Shown here in pieces: positions 3,189 to 56,439 of a stretch of DNA of 64,000 nt. This DNA is from Eledone cirrhosa. Taxonomy: Eukaryota. Under the pieces are notes generated by a model. That model saw nothing but the letters and a program-made list of their open reading frames with translations, was not told the DNA's origin and ran no database searches. Within the stretch, counting starts at the first letter, position 1, and the number at the start of each line of letters is the position of its first letter. The stretch is from the NCBI GenBank assembly GCA_964016885.1, contig OZ024763.1, forward strand, positions 10,354,001 to 10,418,000. The letters run 5' to 3'. The translations under genes were made by a program, and so were the position numbers.

Positions 3189-3610
3189 TAAACTTTTAAT
3201 ATATATATATATATATATATATTATAAATGTAAGGAGAAAATAGACAAAATCTACCTAATTTTTTCTCCAAAGTCCCGACTGCAGTTTTATTATATATAG
3301 TTATAATAGTTAAATAGATCTGATTGAATGGTTATTTTTTTAATTCTTTCAGTCATTGGGCAAAACTGGTTACGGCAGGATACACACACACACACACACT
3401 TATGTATCTGTGTGTGTATCTTATTATTATATATATCATCATTATTTTACGTCCGCTTTTAAAATGATGATGATGATATATATAATAATAAGAAGATACA
3501 CATGCAGATACGTAAGTATCTATATATATATATATTGTCTAACCCCTGCTAGCATGGAAAATGGATGTTAAGCGATAATGATGATGATATATAGGTACGT
3601 GTGCATGGTG

Positions 3611-3646
<36 letters not shown>

Positions 3647-5152
3647 CATGGTATATATGTATGTGTGTGTGTATATATATACATATATAAAAAATATACA
3701 CACTCACACTATTAGATACCCATTCTTCTCTAAGTATAAACATTTATCTTTCGATTTGTAGAGCCCTCCCTACTTCCAGGAGTTGAAGGACTCTGGGTGC
3801 TATTTAGATGTACGATATTGTTGGTAGTGTAAAGATTGGGTAGCACTGGTATGTCATATGACAATCTAACAGGCAATCACATAACAGGAAATAACAGGGA
3901 TATCACTGGGCTAAATTAAATAGAGCAATTTATTATTCAGGAAAACAGTTTTTATTTATTAATCTTTGGTAAGCATTAGTTTTAGGCAAGTACATATAAA
4001 TATAAATATATAGTAGCTATGTATTGTTTACAACAGACTGATACAAACATACAGACTGTCTGAAAAATAGAAACAAACATGTACATACATACAAATATAC
4101 ATACATTCTCTCTGTATATATAATGTGTGTGTGTGAGAAAAAGAGAGAGATTGGGAGTTACCAGTTTAGACTAGTCAGACCCCATTATTCAACTATGTAA
4201 TCGGGAAAGTAGAGTAAACAGTTATTGCCCAATGGCTGAGCTTCTCCACTTGGTGTTTAAACGTTAGGTGCTCAGCACTGGGCAATAACTCTTTATATAT
4301 ATATATATATAAAACATATGCGTACAGTTAAACATTTAAATAAATGTAAACCACACAAACCTTATGTTATAAAGTGAAAAGTCTGTCTTTTAACATCAGG
4401 GCAGGGAATACCTGACTTCACTTCATTTTGAGTAACTGAGACTATATAAGTCTGCTTTACACATTTATATACATATTTCTGCAAACATGTTATACAAACA
4501 TCATGACTGTTTGATGGGGGGGTTATTAAAGATATTTTGTATATTGTAATTAGTTCCTTATGTTTGGTTTGGACCATTAGTCTTCCTAAATCCACTATTA
4601 AATGTTTCGAGATCCTCACAACCCTATCTTCAGAAATAATGGTGTGTTGTTCATGTGATATCATGCGAGTAATAGTAATCAATGCTGAATTTAAATAAAT
4701 TATTCTGAAGATGGAGCTGAGAAGGTTTTGAAATGTTAACCATTTTAATACCGAAGTACCTGAAAATGTCCCTGATTCTATGATACAGAAATGTTTATTT
4801 GAAAGTGTTTATATTTATCTAAAAAAATGTACCATCATAATTTTATGTAAGAACCTTTGTTAAGTTACATTCCAAACACCAGATTAATAAGCTAATCATA
4901 ATACAGAATCTGACCAAATTCTTCATTATTTTCAAAACTTTGAAAATCGTAGAGAAGAGAATCTTTCATTAGAAATATTGTAATGAAAGTGTTGAAACAC
5001 ACAGGGACTTTGGAGCAGCATTGTTCCAAAACTAAAGTAAAGAACTGATAAGGAAATATGTGCAATATTAAATAAAAGATCAAATGGAGCACAGTGGTGT
5101 TTTAAATATAATGTTTGCAAAAAGCTGTTCCCTTCTTACATATATATATATT

Positions 5153-5397
5153 GTTATAAATGTATTCTCAGTACTGTTGCACGTTACCTAAGTTTTTGAA
5201 GCCCACTCTAGCATAGGTTTAGAGACAGTGTATCTGCTAATGTTGCTTATCTTTCAGGCAAGTAATACTAATACCATCATAGTATTGCTTGCCTGGGAGA
5301 TAAGCAACTACTAGTAGATATACCATCTCTAAACTATGCTAGAGTAGGCTTCAAAAACTTAGGTAGCGTGCAACAGTATTGAGAATTTATCTATGAT
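5153..5397. repeat. Long imperfect hairpin (about 115-bp arms), MITE/foldback-like
   Basis: attctcagtactgttgcacgttacctaagtttttgaagc... pairs with ...gcttcaaaaacttaggtagcgtgcaacagtattgagaat. Confidence 0.85.
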
Positions 5398-5480
5398 AAT
5401 ATACTTTACCTCTCTACTTAATAAAGAGCAGTCTTTTTCTTTTATCTAGTCTATGGAAATTCTTGACACTACACACACAT

Positions 5481-18144: not shown

Positions 18145-21100
18145 CAATGTACTTGTGTGCCTGTGTGTGTGAGTGCCTGTGTGTATGTGCATGCATGTAT
18201 ATCAATATTTTACCTCCTGTTGTAGAAGTTCCCATTCTTTGTCACTAACCATACGTCGTCCCTCCAGAGAGAATCCGTCAGTCTTGGACTTCACACTTGC
18301 CAACAGTGAGTTGTGGGCCTCAACTTCAGGAGTTGGGTCTGAAACACACAAAACATTCAACAAATTCACAAAAAATAAAATGTAAAACACATCCCTCCCC
18401 TGCCCCCATCAAAACACTCATCTGAAATCCTAATTTACACCTATATTTCTATACTGGCCTGTGTCAGATGGGTCGTTATGGTATAGGTCAGTAATTGGAG
18501 TTACTGTCCTCTTAGACAGACCAGGGTAGTATGGGATCTGCAGCTGTGATATGGTTTATACAGCTAGATGCTCTTCTACACAGCAACCACTTTACAGAGT
18601 GTACTGGGTGCAACTTATGGCATATTTACAGTGGTTAAGTCTTTCAAGTGGCTCACTGCTCAGTCACCAATAACTTTACAGAATGTACAGGGTATATTTT
18701 ATCAAGGTGGCAACACTGAACAGGTTGTAATGCCCAAGATGTCCCTAAAGAGTATACATGTCCCTGTTTCCCTATTCATTACCTAACTACTTTACAGAAT
18801 GTACTCAGTATATTTTACCATGATACCAGCACTGAAGAGACTATCATGTCCCCTGCAAAACTAAAGATCCCTACCTATTCTATATAGTCTCTGTTCCTCT
18901 AAGGAATGATGACCAGTTTAAATTACCCCTTTTGTTACAGTATTTCTAAAAGGTTCTGCAACCAACTAGAGCCCCTTAACACTTTCGTTTTATTTCTAAG
19001 GGGGTTCTGCAACCAATATAGGACTAGAATCCCCACCATGGGAACCTCCTATAAGATTACAACTGATAAGAGGCCATCTAAACCTCTGCATATATGTGAC
19101 CCATAACAACAACAACCAACGTACCTGTAATTGCACGCCTCTGAGCCTCAGTCAACGAAGGAAGCGTTATGGTCTTCTCGGGACTAATCCGGATTGTGTT
19201 GTATACCGTGTGAGCCAAACTAGTATTTAGTAAGGAGGAGTCAAATGATTCATTGTTGATATCACTGACATCAGAACTGGAAAAGGATTTCTTCACCCCT
19301 GTACTGATCTCATTCTTCTGTACAGTGAGGTCAACCAGGCTGCTGGACACGGTGGAGGTCTTACACTGAGGGTCAGCACTAACAGTCTTCATAAGTGAAC
19401 TCTGGCAGGAGGAAGGTGGCGAAAATAGAGAGAAAAATATAAAATATAGACATTTAATAAAATATACAAACTGACAAAGATGAAGATGAGAGGGAAAGAG
19501 AGAGGGAAAGAGAGAAAGTGAGACAGAGAGGGATAGAGAGAGAGATGAAGAGAGAGGTGGACAGAGAGAGAAAAAGGTAGAAATGTCAATAAAATGATGA
19601 TGGTGGGGGTGTTGTTAGTGTTGCTGTTGGGGGTGGTGGTGATAGTAGCAGTGATGGTGTTGGTGGTGTTGGTGTGGTGGTGGTAATGGTGGTGTTGGTG
19701 TTGGTGTGGTAGTGGTGGTAATGGTGATGGTGGTGTTGGTGTGGTGGTGTTGGTGTTGTAGTGGTGGTGGTGGTGGTGGTGGTGGTGGTGGTGGCGGTGG
19801 TGTTGGTGTGGTAGTGGTGGTGGTGGTGTTAGTGGCATTGGTAGTGGTGGTGTTAGTGGTATTGGTAGTGGTGGTAGTGGTGGTGGTAGTGGTGGTAGTG
19901 GTGGTGTTGGTGTGGTAGTGGTAGTGGTGGTAATGGTGGTGGTGGTGTTGGTGTGGTGGTGGCGGTGGTGGTGGTAGTGGTGGTGTTATTGTTAGTGGTA
20001 TTGGTAGTGGTGGTAGTGGTGGTGTTGGTGTGGTAGTGGTAGTGGTGGTAATGGTGGTGGTGGTGTTGGTGTGGTGGTGGCGGTGGTGGTGGTGGTGGTG
20101 GTAGTGGTGGTGTTATTGTTAGTGGTATTGGTAGTGGTAGTGGTGGTCGTGGTGGTATTGGTAGTGATGATGGTGATGGTATTGGTAGTGGTGGTGGTAG
20201 TGATGGTGGTGTTAGTGGTATTGGTAGTAGTGGTGTTGGTAGTAGCATTGGTAGTGATGGTGGTGGTATTGGTAGTGATGGTGATGGTGGTGTTGGTGAT
20301 GGTGGTATTGGTAGTGGTGGTGGTGATAGTGTTTTTGAGGGCCAGAAGGAAGGAGTGGTAGAGATAAGAGCAGTAACAACAATAAAACTGCCAACAACTA
20401 TAACGTTATTCAATTTAGGCACATGGCCAGCAATTTGTGGGGAAGTTTGATCATATTGAGCCCAGTATATGACTGGTATTGTATTTGATCAACTCTGGAA
20501 AGTTGAAAAGCAAAGGTGACCTGGATAAGATTTGAAACCAGCATGGATAGCACCCCAATAAAATACTGCAATACATTTCATCTGATTCTCTAACAATTCT
20601 GGTAATAAACCAACCTACCAGCGATGCTGATAATAATAATAATTGTTTCTACTTTAGGCACAAGGCCAACAATTTTGGGGGAAGGGAAAATTGATTAAAT
20701 CGACCCCAATATTTTTCTTTATCGACCCTGTAAGGATGAAAGGCAAAGTCAACCTCAGCATGATTTGAACTCAGAACATAAAGAGACGTAACTATGCCGC
20801 GAAGCATGTTGTCCAGCGCTCTACCGATACTGCCAATCCACCGTTAATAACATCATCACTGAAACAAACCAACTAATCATAGCAGCCACTAATGTCATTG
20901 CTGACATAATAGGATACAAGTGGAAAAGAAAGAACCATGTTAGAGGAAGAGAAAATGAAGTTGGAAAATACACGGATAGAAGTGAGGTAGACAGGATAAT
21001 GAGAGGGGAAATAATGAGGCAATAGAGAGGAAACTGAATGGTCAGTAGAGGTTAGAAGGTGAAGGGGAAAAGAGTAGGTAAAACAATGTCACAGATGAAG

Positions 21101-36100: not shown

Positions 36101-39100
36101 AGTGGTGTCAATTATCCCCACCACTAATCCTCAATAGAACTGATCGCAGGGCCTGAATAGTAGAAGACTGAACGCTTGACAAAATTCCAATTGCCAAGTA
36201 ACCTAAGATTGCAACTCCATCAAGGGGATGAGCTGGGGAAACATGCTTGGTGAACAGTGACCACACCAGTTCACCATCAAGGAAACGGAGTTGTAGCTTC
36301 AGTGCATGCCATCAGCATGTCCCGATCTCCACACAGCAGATAGACTGTCTAACTATTGCAATTTATATAAAGGCAAAGAATAATTCAAAGCGCAAATGTG
36401 ATTTTATAGTCCACAACAAGATAGGCAAAAAGACAATCGAGAGTTTAAACCAATCGGTAAATTTCCAATCAGAGTAGCTTTATAATACCACAGTGCACAT
36501 ATATAATGAATAAAAATAACCAGGATTAAATTACATTAAATTATTTAATTAATTTACGAATGTTTCTATCAATGCAGTAAGAAAATACATTTCCTCTGTA
36601 TTGATTTCATCAGAATCTATCAAACAACATAACATAATTATTTACCAGCCACATGTCTGTACATCTCCATTTACCAGCCACATATCTGTACATCTCCATT
36701 CCGTAAACAAATTTAATTATACAGTTGGGAAAATGTTAAAACTTTATGGAAGACTAACCACGCAATTAAAATTTATTCGTTATAAAAATATAACATATAA
36801 TGACTAAAGATATTGTGCTAGATCATTACACCATTACACACTGATACAAATATACTACAGAAATGTATTCTCTTGTACTGAATGAAACGTTTGTAATCAA
36901 TTAAATAATATAATATAATCCTGGCAATATATATTCTAACCCATGCAAGCGTGGAAAATGGACATTTAATGACAATGATGACTTATATGTGTGTGTGTGT
37001 GTATATATATATATATACCCATGCAAGCATGGAAGATGGAAGTTAAACGATGATGATGATGTACGATGATGCAGCCGATCCTTCAGACTTTAATGAACCA
37101 CTGAGGGGATAAATTTAATATAAAGAGTTGTGTGCTTATGCATGGAGATGCTACAAAATAGCTTATAAAATAGGATGAGGACCCTTCAAGATAGAAAGAA
37201 AAGTTGCCACCAACTGCTACAAGGTAAAACACTTCATATCTCCTGGATACTGGCTATGGTAACTTCTTCTTCCGTCTTTAAAGGTCTTCACCTTATTTGA
37301 TAGCTCCTCTGCACATGAGCACACCACTCTTTAGTATGCACCAATTTCCCCCTACCTTCCCCCCTCTTCCATACACCTCCCACGTCCTAACACCCCACCC
37401 TAGATCTACCTCTCCAATTGCCACGCACCTCCTCCACCCCAGTCCACACTGTAGATGTGGTTGGTGTTAGGAAGGGCATCCAGCCATAGAATCCATCTGG
37501 TCTGGCTTGCCTTGCAACAGGACAGCTCATCTAATCCATACTAGCCTGGAACAATGGATGGTACATGGCGGTGATGATGATGATGATACTTGCAGAGGTT
37601 AGGCAGGATGTAATGAGGCTAAACTGGTCAGATGAACATGTCTTGCTCATATGTTCCATTTGGGCTGGATGCCCTTCCTACTGGTACTACCACTTTACAG
37701 CATATACTGGGTGATTTTTATTGTGGTACTAATACCACCACATTACAAAGTGGGCTGGGTGCTATTATGGCACCAGTACTATCATATTACAAGGTGGGCT
37801 GGGTGGTATTATGGCACCAGTACGACATTACAAGGTGGGCTGGGTGGTATTATGGCACCAGTACCACCACATTACAAGGTGGGCTGGGTGGTATTATGGC
37901 ACCAGTACGACATTACAAGGTGGGCTGGGTGGTATTATGGCACCAGTACCACATTACAAGGTGGGCTGGGTGGTATTATGGCACCAGTACGACATTACAA
38001 GGTGGGCTGGGTGCTATTATGGCACCAGTACCACCACATTACAAGGTGGGCTGGGTGCTATTATGGCACCAGTACGACATTACAAGGTGGGCTGGGTGCT
38101 ATTATGGCACCAGTACTACCACATTACAAGGTGGGCTGGGTGGTATTATGGCACCAGTACCACATTACAAGGTGGGCTGGGTGGTATTATGGCACCAGTA
38201 CCACATTACAAGGTGGGCTGGGTGGTATTATGGCACCAGTACCACCACATTACAAGGTGGGCTGGGTGGTATTATGGCACCAGTACCACATTACAAGGTG
38301 GGCTGGGTGGTATTATGGCACCAGTACCACATTACAAGGTGGGCTGGGTGGTATTATGGCACCAGTACCACATTACAAGGTGGGCTGGGTGGTATTATGG
38401 CACCAGTACCACATTACAAGGTGGGCTGGGTGGTATTATGGCACCAGTACCACATTACAAGGTGGGCTGGGTGGTATTATGGCACCAGTACCACATTACA
38501 AGGTGGGCTGGGTGGTATTATGGCACCAGTACCACATTACAAGGTGGGCTGGGTGGTATTATGGCACCAGTACCACATTACAAGGTGGGCTGGGTGGTAT
38601 TATGGCACCAGTACCACATTACAAGGTGGGCTGGGTGGTATTATGGCACCAGTACCACATTACAAGGTGGGCTGGGTGGTATTATGGCACCAGTACCACA
38701 TTACAAGGTGGGCTGGGTGGTATTATGGCACCAGTACCACATTACAAGGTGGGCTGGGTGGTATTATGGCAACAGTACCACCACATTACAAGGTGGGCTG
38801 GGTGGTATTATGGCACCAGTACCACATTACAAGGTGGGCTGGGTGGTATTATGGCAACAGTACCACCACATTACAAGGTGGGCTGGGTGGTATTATGGCA
38901 CCAGTACCACATTACAAGGTGGGCTGGGTGGTATTATGGCAACAGTACCACCACATTACAAGGTGGGCTGGGTGGTATTATGGCACCAGTACTACCACAT
39001 TACAAGGTGGGCTGGGTGGTATTATGGCACCAGTACCACATTACAAGGTGGGCTGGGTGGTATTATGGCACCAGTACCACCACATTACAAGGTGGGCTGG

Positions 39101-41094
39101 GTGCTATTATGGCACCAGTACCACCACATTACAAGGTGGGCTGGGTGCTATTATGGCAACAGTACTACCACATTACAAGGTGGGCTGGGTGCTATTATGG
39201 CACCAGTACCACCACATTACAAGGTGGGCTGGGTGCTATTATGGCACCAGTACCACCACATTACAAGGTGGGCTGGGTGCTATTATGGCACCAGTACCAC
39301 CACATTACAAGGTGGGCTGGGTGCTATTATGGCACCAGTACTACCACATTACAAGGTGGGCTGGGTGCTATTATGGCACCAGTACCACCACATTACAAGG
39401 TGGGCTGGGTGGTATTATGGCACCAGTACCACCACATTACAAGGTGGGCTGGGTGCTATTATGGCACCAGTACTACCACATTACAAGGTGGGCTGGGTGG
39501 TATTATGGCACCAGTACCACCACATTACAAGGTGGGCTGGGTGGTATTATGGCACCAGTACCACCACATTACAAGGTGGGCTGGGTGGTATTATGGCAAC
39601 AGTACTACCACATTACAAGGTGGGCTGGGTGGTATTATGGCACCAGTACCACCACATTACAAGGTGGGCTGGGTGCTATTATGGCACCAGTACTACCACA
39701 TTACAAGGTGGGCTGGGTGGTATTATGGCACCAGTACTACCACATTACAAGGTGGGCTGGGTGCTATTATGGCACCAGTACTACCACATTACAAGGTGGG
39801 CTGGGTGCTATTATGGCACCAGTACTACCACATTACAAGGTGGGCTGGGTGCTATCATGGCACCAGTACCACATTACAAGGTGGGCTAGGTGGTATTATG
39901 GCACCAGTACCACATTACAAGGTGGGCTGGGTGCTATTATGGCACCAGTACCACATTACAAGGTGGGCTGGGTGCTATTATGGCAACAGTACTACCACAT
40001 TACAAGGTGGGCTGGGTGCTATTATGGCAACAGTACTACCACATTACAGGGTGGGCTGGGTGCTACTATGGCACCAGCACCACCTCATTACAATACTAGG
40101 GTGCTCAGTGTGTCTTGGGGCTATGGGTGAGGGATTGATGGGTAGGTGCAAGATAAAAGGGGTATAGGCTATGTGCTATTTGCTAGGGAAAGAGACATGC
40201 CACCTTGAGAAAGGAAACATTGGATGATGGATGTGGCCTTGTAGCAAGTGGGTAGTGTCTGACATTGAGGGATGTGCCTGTTTTCTATGTTGGCATGGGG
40301 GTATGGGGAGCATGGGTTGGAAGGTGAATCAAATAAATGAGAAAAGAGGAACAGGTATGCTAACCTCCATACTGGCATGTTGGCTGAGGAAGGGCTAAGG
40401 TATGGCCTTAGTGAGGAGGGGAAATTGGGAGAATAATGGCAGTGTAGGGGAGGGCATCCTCTATATGTTTGTTTCTCCCTGTTGCATGGAAAGGCAAGTG
40501 TCCTACAGTATGACATGTTTCCAATCACCTCAATCCTGGGTCAACCAGATATATGAGTTCAGGTCAATCTTTCATCTCATCTCCCTACTTTTTTCTGTCT
40601 TCATCATCCACTTCAAGTGCCCTGTATTTCTTTATGCAGCTGTCATTGTCCATGTGCATGAAATAGCAATATCAACGCAGTAACATCTCCTGCACAATGC
40701 ATTTCATGTCATCATGTGATGCACAGTATTTTTCACTCAGTTGCACACAATGTGAAAATAGGTAGAAACATGTGCTTACGCCGTATTTCACTAAATAAAA
40801 TTAGTCTGTTAGTTGGGATTATAAAAAAACCCTCTGAATGGAAAAGGGTTGAGTATTGACGTACAGGGGACACAAAGCCACATCTTTGGTTTGCCAGACC
40901 AATGTGCTAAAACAACAACACTACACAACCACAGAATCACTAACACCACTACACAAACACTCCCACCATTACCACACTATACTGCCATCAGCAAATACAG
41001 AAAAAGAAAACAAGACAAAAAGCAGATAAAAGCAATGTCTACAAATAAACAATAGCAGGTAACTACAGCATGTCTGTGTAGGTGTATGTATGTA

Positions 41095-41154
<60 letters not shown>

Positions 41155-44126
41155 CACAGTGTGCATGTGTGTATATATATATACACGCACATACATATAT
41201 ACACATACATGTACACACACACATATATATATATATACACACATAAATATAAACACATATATATAGAGAGAGAGACAGATACACACACACACATATCTCA
41301 ATATATATACAAAAATATATATGGATGTATATATATATATATATTATACACATACATATACATGTCAATATATATATATATATATATGCATATATACATA
41401 CATATACATGTCAACACACACATATATATATATATACATATATACATACATATACATGTCGACACACATATATATATATATTTATAAATACATATATATA
41501 TGTCTATATATATATTTACATAAACTCCCAGACATACATATACCTATACATATATATACACATACACATATATATCTGGTGCCGTGCGCCTTACTTGCAG
41601 TTCCTTAGGGTCACCATCTTTCCTGAAGGCTGTTAGCAAAGTTTTCAGGTTGGCCTGTGGTGGCTTCGATTTCAATGTAGGAGATGATGGTAAAAGAAGT
41701 GTCTTCATTTTGTTGCTGGCCTGCACGAGAGGGATAGTCCACGATATATATATGTGTATGTATATGGATGTATCTACATATGTATGTATGTATGTATGTA
41801 TATATATATATATATATATATGCAGAAATACAGAAAAAGAGGGGAAAAAATAAGTAGTATATATATATATATATTGTTATACTTTGGGAGGGTCATGTTG
41901 CCAATAAGAAACACATGCACCAGTTGCTTTTTTTTTTTTTATAAATTTCCGGTTGGTTGGTTGACTGGTTCCACAACCAGACGGTTGTTCATATATTGTC
42001 AAAGTTCTTTCGTCACACATTCTGTGACCTCTTCAGTGACTGGGGATTCTTTTCTTTGTTTTGTGCCTCTCCTTTGTTCTGTCCTACGCCATCTTGAAAA
42101 AACAAGATGGCGTTGGACAGAACAAAGGAGAGGCACAAAACAAAGAAAAGAATCCCCAGTCACTGAAGAGGTCACAGAATGTGTGACGAAAGAACTTTGA
42201 CAATATATGAACAACCGTCCGGTTGTGGAACCAACCAACCAACCAGAAATTTATAAATTTAAAAAAAAAAAAAAAATTTTTTATTTTTTTTATTTATAAT
42301 AAATTGGAGTGAAAGCAACTGGTGCATGTGTTTCTTATTGCCAACATGACCCTCCCAAACTATAACAATATCGGTTCAACACAAGTTTTCAGATAAAGAA
42401 TCTTGGTAAACAAATTCAGAAACAAAATATATATATATATATATATATATATCATAATCATCATTGTATATATATATACACAGATAAATATATATATATA
42501 TATTTATAATTATATATATATATATATATATATATTTATTATTATAAAAAAACACACACAGTCCACACTGTAATGTGGCTGTGTAGGTAACACGGTAGAA
42601 AGTTCCCAGTTACACACTGTAAACGTGGTTAGTGTTAGGAAGGGCATCCAGCCGTAGAAAACCTGCCCAACCTTGCCTCAAGTGGGACAACTCCCGTCTA
42701 ACCCATGCTAGCGTGGAAAATGGACGTTAAACAAAGATGATGATGATGATGATATATATATATGAAAGGAATATGTTTGAAACACAGTAAGCAAAGTTTT
42801 AGAATTGAAATGGAAATGTCGCCATAACATTGACTACATAATACAGTTTAATGATCAGGAATATAAACCCACTGAACAGAAAAACACGGATATTAGCTTT
42901 CTGTTCTGTGTGTTTATATACCTCATTATTGGACTATATTATGCAGTCAATGTTAGAGTGACACATCTATTTCTATTTCAATTCTACACACACACATACA
43001 CACACATATACATATATATATAGTAATTGTTTCTACTTTAGGCACAAGGCCAGCAACTACCCAGTGCCTCACTGGTACTTTATTTTATCGACCCCGTAAG
43101 GATGAAAAGCAAAGTCAACCTCGGCGGGATTTGAACTCAGATCGTAAAGGGACGTAACTATGGTAGAAAGCATGGCGTCCGACCCTCTACCGATACTACC
43201 AATCCACCGCCCTACATATATATATAGTAATAATAATAAATTTGAAGACTAAAATCCAAAGAGGGCTCGATAAGGATAAATATATATCAAATATATAAGA
43301 ACCGTAGAGCAAATAGAGTTTCAGAAGATCCCGTTAAGGGTGAAAGCAGCGATTCTTTGCTTAAACTTTAATCTGTTATTTTAATAAATATATATATATA
43401 TATTTTTTTTTTCATTTTCATTTCATTTTACGTCCACTTTTTCCCAGCTTGCAAGGGTGGGACAGGAACTGATTCTGGCTTGATTTCTACAGCTGGATGC
43501 CCTTCCTAACACCAACCTCATTTACAGTGAGTGCTGGGTGCTTTTTTGCCATGGCACCTCCACGACCACTTTGCAGTGGAATGATATGGATCCCAGCCCC
43601 TATCATCTCATTTCTACAGCTGAGTAAACTCAGTAAACTAAAGTAAACTAAATTTATATATATATATATATATATATATAAATATAAATTAGCGAGAATG
43701 GTATTTCGGCTTTGGAATTAGCGAAAAACAACTTCCGAGATGTGTGGCAAGCGCTCAATAATTCTGACGAACCAGTGCTACAACATACGTTAAAGGCCAA
43801 ACACACTGAGACGATGGTTAAACTGTCATCCGCACACCCATAGAAACGACCAAGTAATTCGGGTCAAACAAATAAAAAAATATGTGATTGAAAAAATTTA
43901 CCTGTAGATATATATATATATAGTTTCCAAAGAAGACAGTCTGATCGAAGCTATATATAAAGTCTGATCGAAGCTATATATAAAGTCTGATAGTATACAG
44001 TTATATAACTGGTATAGATCAGACAATATGTCAATATGATTGACCCTCTGAAACGATCGTAAAACAATGATATGAATAGGTAAAATAACTTGACTTTGTT
44101 GTTATTTTCATTGGTAATGTAATACC

Positions 44127-50100: not shown

Positions 50101-53100
50101 CATGCATAGACTGGAGAGAAATGAAACAGCCATGCTTCGTTGGATGCGCAACGTAAATGTGAAGAAATGCAGAGCTTGGATGAACTGAGGGAGAAGCTGG
50201 GTTTAAGAAGAATCTGAGGTGGTGTGCTGGAAAGAAGATTGTGTTGGTATGGACATGGGTGAAGAAGTGCCAAGAAATCCTAGTGGAAGGAAGCCACAAT
50301 AGAGGTAGACCAAGAAAGACCTGGGCAGAAGTGGTGAGAGCTGACCTCAAATAGCTGAGGCTAAGAAGAGATGACAAAGAAATGGCAATGAGTGGAAAGA
50401 TGCTGTGCTGAAAAGACCCGTCCAACCCATGCATGGAAAAACAAATGGAAAAATTATGATACCTCTTTTGAGTTCGGCACCAACGTCTTACAGTAAGCCA
50501 CCTGCTCTGCCTCCCGGGCCAAACAATAACTTATCTGTATAGGACCGATGAGGGATCCTTAAGTTGCACAAGTGGCAGCCCATGATCATCTGGTGTAGAC
50601 GAGGATCTAAGAGAGCAGTTAGTCCTGAATAAAATAAAACTGTATGGGACAGACATGGACCCCATTAGCTGTAGTGAAGACAGCCCATCTAGGAGGGCAG
50701 AGAGAATAAAAAATGATTTAGGGGGAAAGGATCCTTGAGTCCAATAAATGCAGCCCATCCATGCTTAATGATAGGAAGGGCATCCAGCCAGAGAAACCCC
50801 TGCCAAAATTATGAAAAGCTCAATACATATGACTCACACTAATTGCATATACAGGACTAACATTTGTCATATTAGTGGTGTGCATGGTAATATGGTGGCT
50901 AAAGTAGCTATGTGAGAGAACCCTTCGACCACCATCAAGTAATTGCACACCATTTTTCATTTCCAAGTACAAAGAAGTCACCATCAAGTAAGACATCTCA
51001 GGGTTGCCACTCTGAAATGTAGATCAGGTGAAGATGTGGAGATGCTAGAGAGGAGAGAAGTGGATGTATGTTGTGTAGAATAGGTGAGATAGAGGAGTGC
51101 CTCAGCAAGACCACAGGCAAACAGTATAGTTACAAGTTCTTCTGGGTAGGAAATGATGGGGTAGGTGGTGCAGGCATTCTACTAGTTGAGAAATAGATAA
51201 TGTAATAAATGTAGTTAGACTGACAGAATTATCAAACTTGGATTAGTTGGAGGCAACAGAATAGGAAAGTCAGCAATAATGACCTCAAACAAGTCCACTA
51301 CACATTCTACCATTAACTTTTGTTTTGTCACATATTTCTCACCTTATGGGTGGGAAGGGTGGGTGGAGAGGGTGGGTTGAGAGGGTGGGTGGAGAGGGTG
51401 GGTGGACAGGGTAGGTGGAGTGGGAAGATGGACAGGGTGGGTGGAGAGGGTGGGTGGAGAGGGTGGGTGGAGAGGATGGGTGGACAGGGTGGGTGGACAG
51501 GGTGGGTGGAGAGGGTGGGTGGAGAGGGTGGGTGGAGAGGGTAGGTGGACAGGATGGGTGGAGAGGGTGGGTGGAGAGGGTGGGTGGAGAGGATAGGTGG
51601 AGAGGGTGGGTGGAGAGGGTGGGTGGAGAGGGTGGGTGGAGAGGGTGGGTGGAGAGGGTGGGTGGAGAGGGTGGGTGGAGAGGGTGGGTGGACAGGCTGG
51701 ATGGAGAGGGTGGGTGGAGAGGGTGGGTGGAGAGGGTGGGTGGAGAGGGTAGGTGGACAGTGAGTAAACAAACATATTCCATGCAGGGACATTACCTTCG
51801 GAGAGGGTCATATTGTTATATTGCCAGAAATATACAATAAAACACTCAATGTTTGGCTTGGAATGGTTTTCACTTCTGTATCTATTACATCCCTATAGTT
51901 AATTTAGCTGGCAATCTATGTTTATCATTGATTGACCAACGGTTAATAATATAGATATAAATATATATATATAGTCTCTCAAAGTTCTTTCATCACACAC
52001 CTGTGTCATCATCAGTGGTACTATTATGTTTCCTCCCATTGTATTGCTGTAATATTTTCTTATTCTATTTTATTTATTTATTTATTGTTGTCTCTGTTTG
52101 TGTGTGTTTGTGTCTGAGTCTGTGTGTTTGTGTCTGAGTCTGTGTGTTCTTGTATTTTATCTTTGGTCATTAGTTGTGTTTATGTATTGTTGTTATTATT
52201 TTACCTGTGTATATTTATTTAAAGATTAAAGTGGTAGAAAAGCCAGGAACTATCATAAAATCCCTGATCTGCAAAACTTACCCCTTTAAGAAAGCCCACT
52301 GTACTAGTAAGAAATGTGTAATATGTAGAATAAATCCTCAAATAAATTGTAAAACTAGAAATGTAGTCTATAGCATAAGATGTACAACATACATAGGAGA
52401 GACAGCCTGGAGCATAGGGGAGAGTAGAGACCAACACTGGGGTGAACTAAAAGGACAAAAAGACAGTTTGGTACTATATGAACATGCCAGACAAAGACAT
52501 GATGGTAATATAGACAACATAGAAATTAAAATAATATCTAAATATAAAAATGACAACAGATAGACAAATTAGGGAAGCAACTGATATAGTCTATTATATA
52601 TATATTTATATCTATATTTTTAACCATTGGTTAATCAATGATAAACACTGATTGCCAGCTAAATTAACTATAGGGATATAGAATATACAGAAGCGAAAAC
52701 CAATCCAAACCAAACATTGAGCGTGTTTTATTATATATTTCTGGCAATATAACAATATGACCCTCCCCAAATATAACAATATTTGTTTCAACACATGATT
52801 TCATATCTAAAACACTTGCAAAACAAATTCATCACCGACATTACCTTCCTCATACTGTCTTCTAAACTTTCTGCTTCAACCGATGCATTTGTACTGGAAA
52901 CACTTCCACTGACACGTTTCAGGGACTTTGCTACAGAGGCTAGAAAACCTTCCCTGGAAATAACAAGAGGAAACAATAACTCAGACATTAAAAATATAAA
53001 TCAAACAAACAAAACATTACACATTTGCATTAGTTTTCCTGTATTCTGTTACTGCTTTCAGTCACACCCTGCTGATGCCCTGCTTTGAAGGGCTTTAATC

Positions 53101-54741: not shown

Positions 54742-56406
54742 ATAGAGTACTGAAGATGGATACCCAACATCCACAGTGAATCGACTTAAGAATCGAAGGC
54801 GCTGCAGACATTTGATCTCCTCTAAAACCTGCTTCATGAAATTAACACATTTCAGCGAAAGCATAAACACAGCTATCTGCAGAGCTATCCGCAAAGGACT
54901 GGACATACAATTAGCACACTCCGGCCCTTCACTGAGTGGATACCTGTCTAAAAAGCAATCCAGAGACAACAACAACCAATGTTCACTGACTAACTGCCCT
55001 ATCCATGACATAGGTGTGTGCCAGCGGACACATGGTATACTGGATCGAATGCAACAAATGTAAGGAGTTCTACATTGGTAGCAGGACTCCAGCACTCCAC
55101 ACTCGTATTAAAGAACACCTCAACACACGTGCATCCTCATTCAAAAAACACATCAACAAATGTAGAAACATCAACCAACATATTAGTCAATATTAAAGCC
55201 AGTGATAGAAATGTGGGCAACTTAAGAATTAAGGAAGTCTTGCTCATACGAAGGCTCAACCCACAAATAAATAATAGATATCGTGTAGACACATACACAC
55301 ATACACAGTATGTTACATGTTTTCCATATTTTAAACTGACTATATTGACATCTGGAGGTTTACAGAGCCAACAGGAAGAACTATACTTTTAATAATACCT
55401 TTAGAAAAGGACACATTAGATAAAGTAGTCCGAGTACACTGGGTTTGTAAAAATATAAATATATACTTTTTGCAGTTTGAAAACCTTACATCTTGTGTCT
55501 ACTAAATGAAGAATGACCATGGGCTAAAAAACAAGAACAATGGAATGATCACAGCTGGAATAACTTTGGTCATAGGCCTTCTTGGGAGCTGACCTAGGGC
55601 TAAACAACAACAACAAGAGATATATCAGTCCACTACTGACCTAGGGCTAAACAACAACAACAAGAGATATCAGTCCACTACTGACCTAGGGCTAAACAAC
55701 AACAACAAGAGATATATCAGTCCACTACTGACCTAGGGCTAAACAACAACAACAAGAGATATATCAGTCCACTACTGACCTAGGGCTAAACAACAACAAC
55801 AACAACAAAGGATATATCAGTCCACTACTGACCTAGGGCTAAACAACAACAACAACAACAACAAGAGATATATCAGTCCACTACTGACCTTTCTTGATTT
55901 AACTGCATCTTTAGATCTTGAAGTTCTTGCTCCGATTTCTCATTCATCTTCATCATTCTCTGCCAGACACTCTCGTATTGAGCTGCTGTCTTCCTTGAGG
56001 CTTCATCAGCTGCTTCTGTAACACACACACATTTTACTTGTCAACTCTCTCCTTACTTTTCTGGGTTTTTTCTACACTTTTCTTCTTCCTCTTTTCACCT
56101 AATGAAGGACATAGCCCAAAACATTATCAACTGACATTTTTTGTCAGAGTTAAAACAGTATCCTTGAATTTTACTGTATTCTATCTTGATTTCGTTTTTT
56201 CAGTCTATTCACTCACTATATGTGACTATGTGTATATATGTATATATTGGAAAATGTGTGAAACCCTTGGTACAGTTAGGTATATTTTAAAAAAGGAAAA
56301 GAATTACTTCACTTGTAGTTCTAAACAATTTGATAAATCATAATATTATAAAATTAAATTAAATTGTTTAGAACTGAAAGTGAAGTCATTCTTTTCCTTT
56401 TTTTAA

Positions 56407-56439
<33 letters not shown>

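Follow-up and report, generated by a model that had tools for sequence, protein, structure and literature searches.

Closest described systems

Insertions of Penelope-like elements (PLEs) show a recognizable shape. The general scheme in PMC8557442 gives a 5'-truncated copy in inverted orientation, a tail on one side and a bias toward (TA)n targets as standard, and the account of Adineta PLEs in PMC3846280 gives head-to-head palindromes as the most frequent arrangement. In Schistosoma, dual hammerheads on opposite strands, 100–700 bp apart, are described as related to truncated PLEs (PMC4209133). For O. vulgaris, 31 recently active Penelope-like families are reported. Both the dual opposite-strand hammerheads and the foldback shape considered here are, in other words, already known for PLEs.

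The window analyzed is a 64,000-nt stretch of the Eledone cirrhosa assembly (GCA_964016885.1, contig OZ024763.1, positions 10,354,001 to 10,418,000, forward strand); coordinates below count from its first letter, and features are collected in Table 1. It contains a foldback that is best explained, with reasonable though far from complete confidence, as a routine head-to-head PLE insertion product of 550 bases in a (TA)n run, probably carried as a passenger in an intron. Like the EN+ PLEs as described (Adineta Pen2/Pen2a and the general scheme), it combines a head-to-head inverted 5'-truncated copy, a junction palindrome, a one-sided tail and an AT-rich target. Unlike these PLEs, it has no ORF, and its pLTR-like arms meet directly to give one long hairpin. 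No target duplication is readable within its (TA)n flanks, and its tail of ~50 nt exceeds the 30–40 nt quoted for EN+ PLEs in PMC8557442, which counts somewhat against this explanation.

Table 1. Coordinates of the foldback, the related remnant and the neighboring exon in the window
Feature	Position	Strand	Remarks
Cassette exon of Rabaptin-5 (RABEP1)	41595..41720	-	126 nt, in frame, AG/GT bounded
Left (TA)n flank	41858..41874	.	4-nt overlap with terminus
Inverted arm	41871..42096	-	element sense on minus strand; ends at short family terminus against (TA)n; no tail
Mirror hammerhead copy	41998..42040	-	host pre-mRNA sense; predicted to be held in duplex
A6 spacer	42097..42102	.	at head-to-head junction
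Direct arm	42103..42371	+	pseudo-LTR-like; no ORF match
Minimal type I hammerhead motif	42159..42201	+	motif and stems
A/T tract	42251..42299	.	own small hairpin; mostly absent from left arm
One-sided tail	42372..42420, end approximate	+	~50 nt; homologous to end of 51.8-52.8 kb element
Right (TA)n flank	42427..42452	.	
Target duplication of related remnant	51788-51799 and 52837-52848		12 bp
Related Penelope remnant	51800..52836	.	inverted arm, GIY-YIG fragment, direct arm with tail, 12-bp target duplication
Hammerhead of related remnant	about 51975-52018	-	within inverted arm; appears decayed
GIY-YIG fragment of related remnant	52213-52560	+	

Foldback geometry

Global alignment of the two arms pairs 217 of 222 aligned bases, with five substitutions and a 4-nt indel, and places 47 extra nt of the right arm within its A/T tract. 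The repeat finder reports the innermost part (41954–42096 and 42103–42245) as ungapped inverted arms of 143 nt, 97% complementary and 6 nt apart. Both agree with an earlier sequence-only reading, which had described inner arms of about 155 bp, outer arms of about 60 bp and an A6 loop. That reading placed the whole element at 41871..42371; the arms are as it described them, but the element continues ~50 nt further, to about 42420, in a tail that is confined to the right arm and whose homology to the 51.8–52.8 kb element reaches 42418–42419. Since both flanks are (TA)n, any target duplication would be hidden inside the TA repeat. Folded as minus-strand RNA, 41871–42371 has a predicted energy of −388 kcal/mol (z = −50.6), equaled by none of 100 shuffled sequences, and the longest unbroken pairing run in the predicted fold is 105 bp.

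Three As of the spacer appear to belong to the family sequence and the other three to be extra, judging from loose ends at 42100 and 42096 in one sequencing run (X17). Complementing three of its bases (42097–42099) would turn the A6 into a perfect T3A3 palindrome. Where the family state of an arm difference is known (42085/42114, 41901/42341 and 41882/42360), the change is always in the right arm and always to the complementary base.

Terminal inverted repeats are also what a MITE or foldback DNA transposon, or a microRNA precursor, would present, and the Rfam model MIR7725 matches with a score of 87.2, above its gathering score of 77. These identities are nonetheless scarcely credible. The MIR7725 alignment is carried by the pairing, and many unrelated miRNA models match the same hairpin; the Rfam miRNA matches were rejected as hairpin-driven. 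The transposon candidate was rejected as well: instead of symmetric fixed termini and a uniform length, the element has a one-sided tail and variable junctions. The hammerhead motif, the variable arm lengths and the homology to an RT-associated endonuclease element likewise speak against both.

Hammerhead motifs

A motif scan places hammerhead cores at 42163–42191 (+) and 42036–42008 (−). The plus-strand motif consists of a 4-bp stem I, CUGANGA, one unpaired G, a 6-bp stem II, GAAA and a CUU triplet; its stem III is rudimentary. The core alone is not unique, since a loose CUGANGA...GAAA scan finds five further matches in the window, but both foldback motifs are distinguished by the 4-bp stem I, the unpaired base before stem II, the G-C closing pair and the UH site, features that PMC4209133 describes for metazoan minimal hammerheads. 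None of the 117 matches of an Rfam search (E <= 1) is to a hammerhead family, which is a point against the preferred explanation; the ribozyme call thus rests on motif and stems rather than on a model hit.

The closest described counterparts are the Schistosoma PLE hammerheads of PMC4209133, also type I and minimal, with a 6-bp helix II, a 4–5-bp helix I, an unpaired base before helix II and a G10.1-C11.1 pair; the pair of motifs on opposite strands, 100–700 bp apart, is shared with the truncated Schistosoma PLEs of the same account. Unlike the Schistosoma motifs, that of the foldback has GAAC as its 15.2-loop-16.2 sequence, which is not a strict palindrome, and a CUU triplet. Many family reads have CUA in place of CUU. 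Among 30 of the 102 family variant rows, those within the hammerhead affect N7, loop II, the edge of stem I and the cleavage base, leaving the invariant core and stem II free; one common variant would lengthen stem I.

The core positions bear out the earlier observation that, in a transcript of either strand, the antisense arm is made first. It had also been proposed that the ribozyme would be locked in dsRNA, and the folding predictions agree: the pairing probability of stem II is 0 in the full hairpin versus 0.96–0.999 in the sense arm alone. In minus-strand pre-mRNA, the antisense arm would emerge first, the arms would zip into a duplex of ~215 bp, and the hammerhead would not fold. Because minimal hammerheads are described as showing no monomer cleavage in vitro (PMC4209133), self-cleavage is unlikely with or without such locking.

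The foldback also resembles the non-LTR retrozymes of bioRxiv 10.64898/2026.07.22.740005 in being short, non-coding and pLTR-related with a type I hammerhead, and dispersed monomers are described there. Retrozymes are described as head-to-tail tandem units, however, whereas the foldback is head-to-head, so that no sense dimer is possible. No second sense hammerhead copy lies near it, the arms being inverted, and the tandem arrangement of a retrozyme is absent.

Affiliation with a Penelope remnant in the same window

It had been claimed that the foldback shares its ribozyme and terminus with a GIY-YIG Penelope remnant at 51.8–52.8 kb. The likeness is real but short, at 85% over 40 nt for the hammerhead and the same for the terminus. 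By nhmmer, the terminus matches at E = 5e-4 and 6e-7 in the two directions, and the hammerhead region at E = 0.038 and 0.018. Homology to the endonuclease-bearing element is limited to these two segments, which tempers the preferred explanation. The stems of the remnant's hammerhead, which is in pre-mRNA sense, look decayed, and it lacks an antisense partner, the corresponding part of the direct arm having been lost at a microhomology.

When 153 endonuclease-related proteins were compared by tblastn (E <= 0.01), none matched 41860–42430, while 151 matches were obtained in the sister element. No ORF was found in the foldback, in keeping with the earlier view of it as non-autonomous: having neither an RT nor a GIY-YIG ORF, it is not an autonomous EN+ PLE but a PLE-derived, ORF-less insertion. 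Its minimal hammerhead motif, head-to-head inverted 5'-truncated copy, one-sided tail and shared termini are all traits of PLE insertions. The Penelope origin suggested by the sequence-only reading is thereby upheld, through the inverted pseudo-LTR anatomy, the one-sided tail, and the hammerhead and terminus in common with the GIY-YIG remnant.

The sister element allows a closer assignment. A CX4CxxC linker precedes its C-terminal-type GIY-YIG, and its endonuclease fragment has 414 relatives at E <= 0.001; in the longer of these with both motifs readable, the endonuclease lies downstream of the RT YxDD motif. A Pfam search of the fragment itself gave no families, and two homologues (P0116 and P0170) have sub-threshold GIY-YIG and RVT_1 matches. 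The linker, which fits the CX2-5CxxC form of the Neptune clade, and the motif order point to a Neptune-like PLE, with no RT present in either element. The foldback's (TA)n location also recalls Neptune, a (TA)n bias being described for the clade in PMC8557442. Its own link to Neptune runs only through the hammerhead and terminus, and Nematis also has the linker motif. The likely source of this ORF-less insertion is a Penelope-like retroelement, likely one of the Neptune type. No protein link between the family terminus and a PLE ORF start was found, nor, in the material examined, a full-length RT/EN partner sharing the hammerhead and terminus. Another GIY-YIG-type Penelope remnant, with 65 weak tblastn matches, lies at 54746–55392.

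The family in sequencing runs

The element was compared at 85% likeness with 4 of 19 listed sequencing runs (X1, X4, X5 and X17); runs X6–X16, with small shares, were left out, as were the intervals 41741–41885, 42229–42304 and 42416–42560. The runs yielded matching contigs (8725, 378 and 9630) and RAD reads (131,635), almost all of them falling on the element; neither these counts nor the summed depths are copy numbers, and the RAD stacks may come from few loci. They show that the foldback belongs to an abundant family. Pattern scans of JGI metagenome contigs gave no matches. The main texts in the open literature on octopus hammerhead ribozymes and octopus Penelope/Neptune elements held no description of the family, which may already be annotated, given the 31 Penelope-like families reported for O. 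vulgaris.

Most of the matched family sequence is not palindromic. Past the position of the foldback's center, 22,153 reads (agreement 0.95) and 11,029 reads (agreement 0.94) share one non-palindromic continuation, and contigs of X1 and X5 also continue past it (74 and 122), with lower agreement. The center is thus a truncation point rather than the usual form of the family. At the other end, 35 contigs of X1 and 2190 reads of X17 pass from the short terminus at 42371 into (AT)n, while other sequence enters the tail, which is covered by family sequence in all four runs compared; the family thus has two ends, and each side of this foldback uses one of them. A pile of read ends at 42415 was dropped as evidence, since it adjoins one of the intervals left out (42416–42560).

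Head-to-head joints were also found elsewhere. There are 10 antisense-to-sense arm joints among 15 of 189 joints, each at a different point, although the joints come from single contigs whose sides are short (22–44 nt), at 85% likeness. One organism B contig (X5 record 21, 42052–42185, 20 differences) crosses the center without a gap. The junction of this foldback therefore exists at least once more, as an orthologue or paralogue, or predates the age implied by arm identity.

These data bear on the proposal that the element is a palindromic Penelope derivative, the whole 550-bp palindrome being a mobile unit that is copied intact and forms a palindromic, non-autonomous subfamily of PLEs. The missing ORF and the organism B contig, which has the same spacing at its gapless center, would fit such a unit, and the contig is to that extent a point against a routine insertion product. 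Most family sequence passes the center without a palindrome, however, and the antisense-to-sense joints are all at different positions; a fully duplexed RNA would presumably also be a poor template. A fixed unit is accordingly very unlikely, and of the original proposal the Penelope origin stands while the fixed palindrome is weakened.

The runs are also relevant to whether the palindrome was created by sequencing or assembly, as an inverted duplication of a single arm. The three changes private to the right arm for which the family state is known, and half of the spacer, all go to the complementary base, an odd pattern that might raise this suspicion. No record spans the locus with its flanks, and no empty site appeared among the matches, although the flank intervals were left out of the comparison and the missing span is thus uninformative. 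Against an artefact, the arms differ by five substitutions and by indels, the left end is the family terminus while the right end has the tail, and head-to-head joins occur in independent runs, all of which makes it highly improbable.

Two-strand priming or snap-back

A Poseidon PLE protein is described in PMC11167929 as cutting and extending both target strands in vitro, favoring AT-rich DNA, and its RT as starting at two sites, the interval between them being the tail. By analogy, the foldback was probably formed by two-strand priming. The RT-endonuclease of an autonomous partner would nick the (TA)n target on both strands, and one cDNA would be primed from each: that of the right arm starting at the tail-proximal site (to about 42420) and that of the left arm at the internal site (the mirror of 42371). 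Both cDNAs would stop near the same template point and be joined head-to-head with three extra As. A weakness of this account is that the mechanism is borrowed from in vitro work on a Poseidon element.

The same Penelope origin could also lead to a foldback by snap-back, in which the first cDNA folds at its 3' end and is copied, before the endonuclease resolves the intermediate at the short terminus. PLE palindromes are read as self-priming in PMC3846280. The two arms end no more than 3 nt apart and have in common variants rare among family reads (42209/41990), which snap-back explains at least as well as two-strand priming does. The A/T hairpin missing from the left arm would fit a template jump during copying. 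However, the family has no native hairpin at the center, where its continuation is non-complementary and offers almost nothing to prime on, and the foldback's left end is a terminus found against (AT)n in many copies. With both target strands extended in vitro (PMC11167929) as a further objection, snap-back is somewhat unlikely, though it is the main alternative.

As a single locus the foldback is of little weight, since it cleanly illustrates a shape already known for Penelope insertions. Its family may be more useful, being abundant, with two termini and many junctions, and a census could separate two-strand priming from snap-back; the cited papers treat this part of the PLE cycle as unresolved.

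Host gene and cassette exon

The host gene is Rabaptin-5 (RABEP1), on the minus strand, with 17 matching segments mapped across the window; the best named relatives are from Octopus and Argonauta, at 95–97% on the query exon. The foldback begins 150 nt from the 3' splice site of an exon, as had been noted. The consideration of this exon as a Penelope remnant was dropped on account of its matches to octopod Rabaptin-5 proteins, and a Pfam search with it gave no families. The exon is included in P0001 and P0004 (O. vulgaris), P0005 (Argonauta) and P0006–P0008 (O. bimaculoides), and absent from P0002 and P0003 (O. vulgaris), P0009, P0011, P0012 and P0014; these are mostly gene models, and 4 of 16 proteins are unreadable at the exon anchor.

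Run X4 contains a 183-nt contig with the exon, with no mismatches and no intron coverage. This is the length expected of a de Bruijn arm unique to inclusion where skipping is also present (27 + 126 + 30 = 183 nt), from which we infer that X4 is RNA holding both isoforms. What had been called a candidate cassette exon is a true one, both by this contig geometry and by its inclusion and skipping in O. vulgaris models. Elsewhere in the gene, P0001 of O. vulgaris matches a shorter part of exon 19126–19413 than do P0003 and P0004, which suggests a second alternative splice.

Age and possible effects on splicing

The element is probably young, as had been thought, its arms being 2.3% apart. With the calibration given in PMC13282606 (a distance of 0.09 for 25 million years), the insertion would be roughly 3 million years old, if the arms began identical and stayed unhomogenised. 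The exon is present in both O. vulgaris and O. bimaculoides, whose split is put at 13.3–33.5 million years by the same source; the exon and its skipping thus likely predate the hairpin, and the exon was likely alternatively spliced without it.

The earlier suggestion that the hairpin's position could let it influence exon inclusion is not supported, with skipping and inclusion both found in O. vulgaris, the exon present in Argonauta, and a hairpin that closes upstream of the acceptor. That it now tunes inclusion, through ADAR recruitment or access to the acceptor, would be compatible with any of the origins discussed. The hairpin lies 150 nt from the acceptor, and in the predicted fold AU repeats carry the pairing to within about 75 nt of it; for squid, common editing of introns and repeats is described (PMC9068888), and both isoforms appear in X4, to judge by contig geometry. 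Yet O. vulgaris models show the two isoforms and Argonauta has the exon too, while the arms are only 2.3% apart. There is some resemblance to the exon-looping inverted Alu pairs described in PMC13019027, in that an intronic inverted repeat lies near a skipped exon, but both arms of the foldback are on one side of the exon, so that it would not be looped out. At least ten SINE-like inverted matches, unlike the hairpin, do flank the exon (10 inverted among the 19 pairs listed). On this evidence tuning of inclusion is quite unlikely, although a modest effect of the hairpin on splicing may exist. The literature on Rabaptin splicing, on hairpins and exon skipping, and on solo head-to-head pLTRs held, in the text available, nothing specific to the locus.

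The duplex is a plausible candidate ADAR substrate in view of such editing in squid. X4 change spectra, compiled without matched DNA, contain no obvious A>G excess. A census of the family could show the amount of intronic dsRNA offered to cephalopod ADAR. On the most far-reaching reading, a very abundant ORF-less hammerhead pLTR family of octopus genomes would integrate as self-silencing foldbacks, partly as fixed palindromes, and seed thousands of long duplexes in introns, with this copy having shifted the inclusion of the Rabaptin-5 exon. If true, such duplexes would lie in an animal where A-to-I editing is extreme; as a joint reading it is very improbable.

The target duplication of the sister element spans the 5' splice site of another Rabaptin-5 exon (52845–52953, minus strand). 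The insertion lies 8 nt into the intron, and as a result the donor recurs about 1 kb downstream; an effect on splicing may be more plausible for this insertion than for the hairpin.

Other foldbacks and repeats in the window

An older foldback lies at 5147–5403, with 105 of 121 aligned bases paired. It begins at (TA)n with the same 11-base terminus as the foldback at 41871–42371. This 11-mer occurs six times in the window versus 0.11 expected, always within three elements (5147–5403, 41871–42420 and 51800–52836), and from these sequence features the older foldback is a possible third Penelope-type insertion of head-to-head form. It has no visible hammerhead, and its G-U wobble skew is not significant (10 versus 5, p = 0.30). 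Further short foldbacks at 3398–3517, 42800–42986 and 56281–56411 have no detectable homology to that at 41871–42371, local alignments of other window foldbacks to the element being within the null range. A long 41/44-bp minisatellite occupies 37614–40250, in the intron downstream of the cassette exon.
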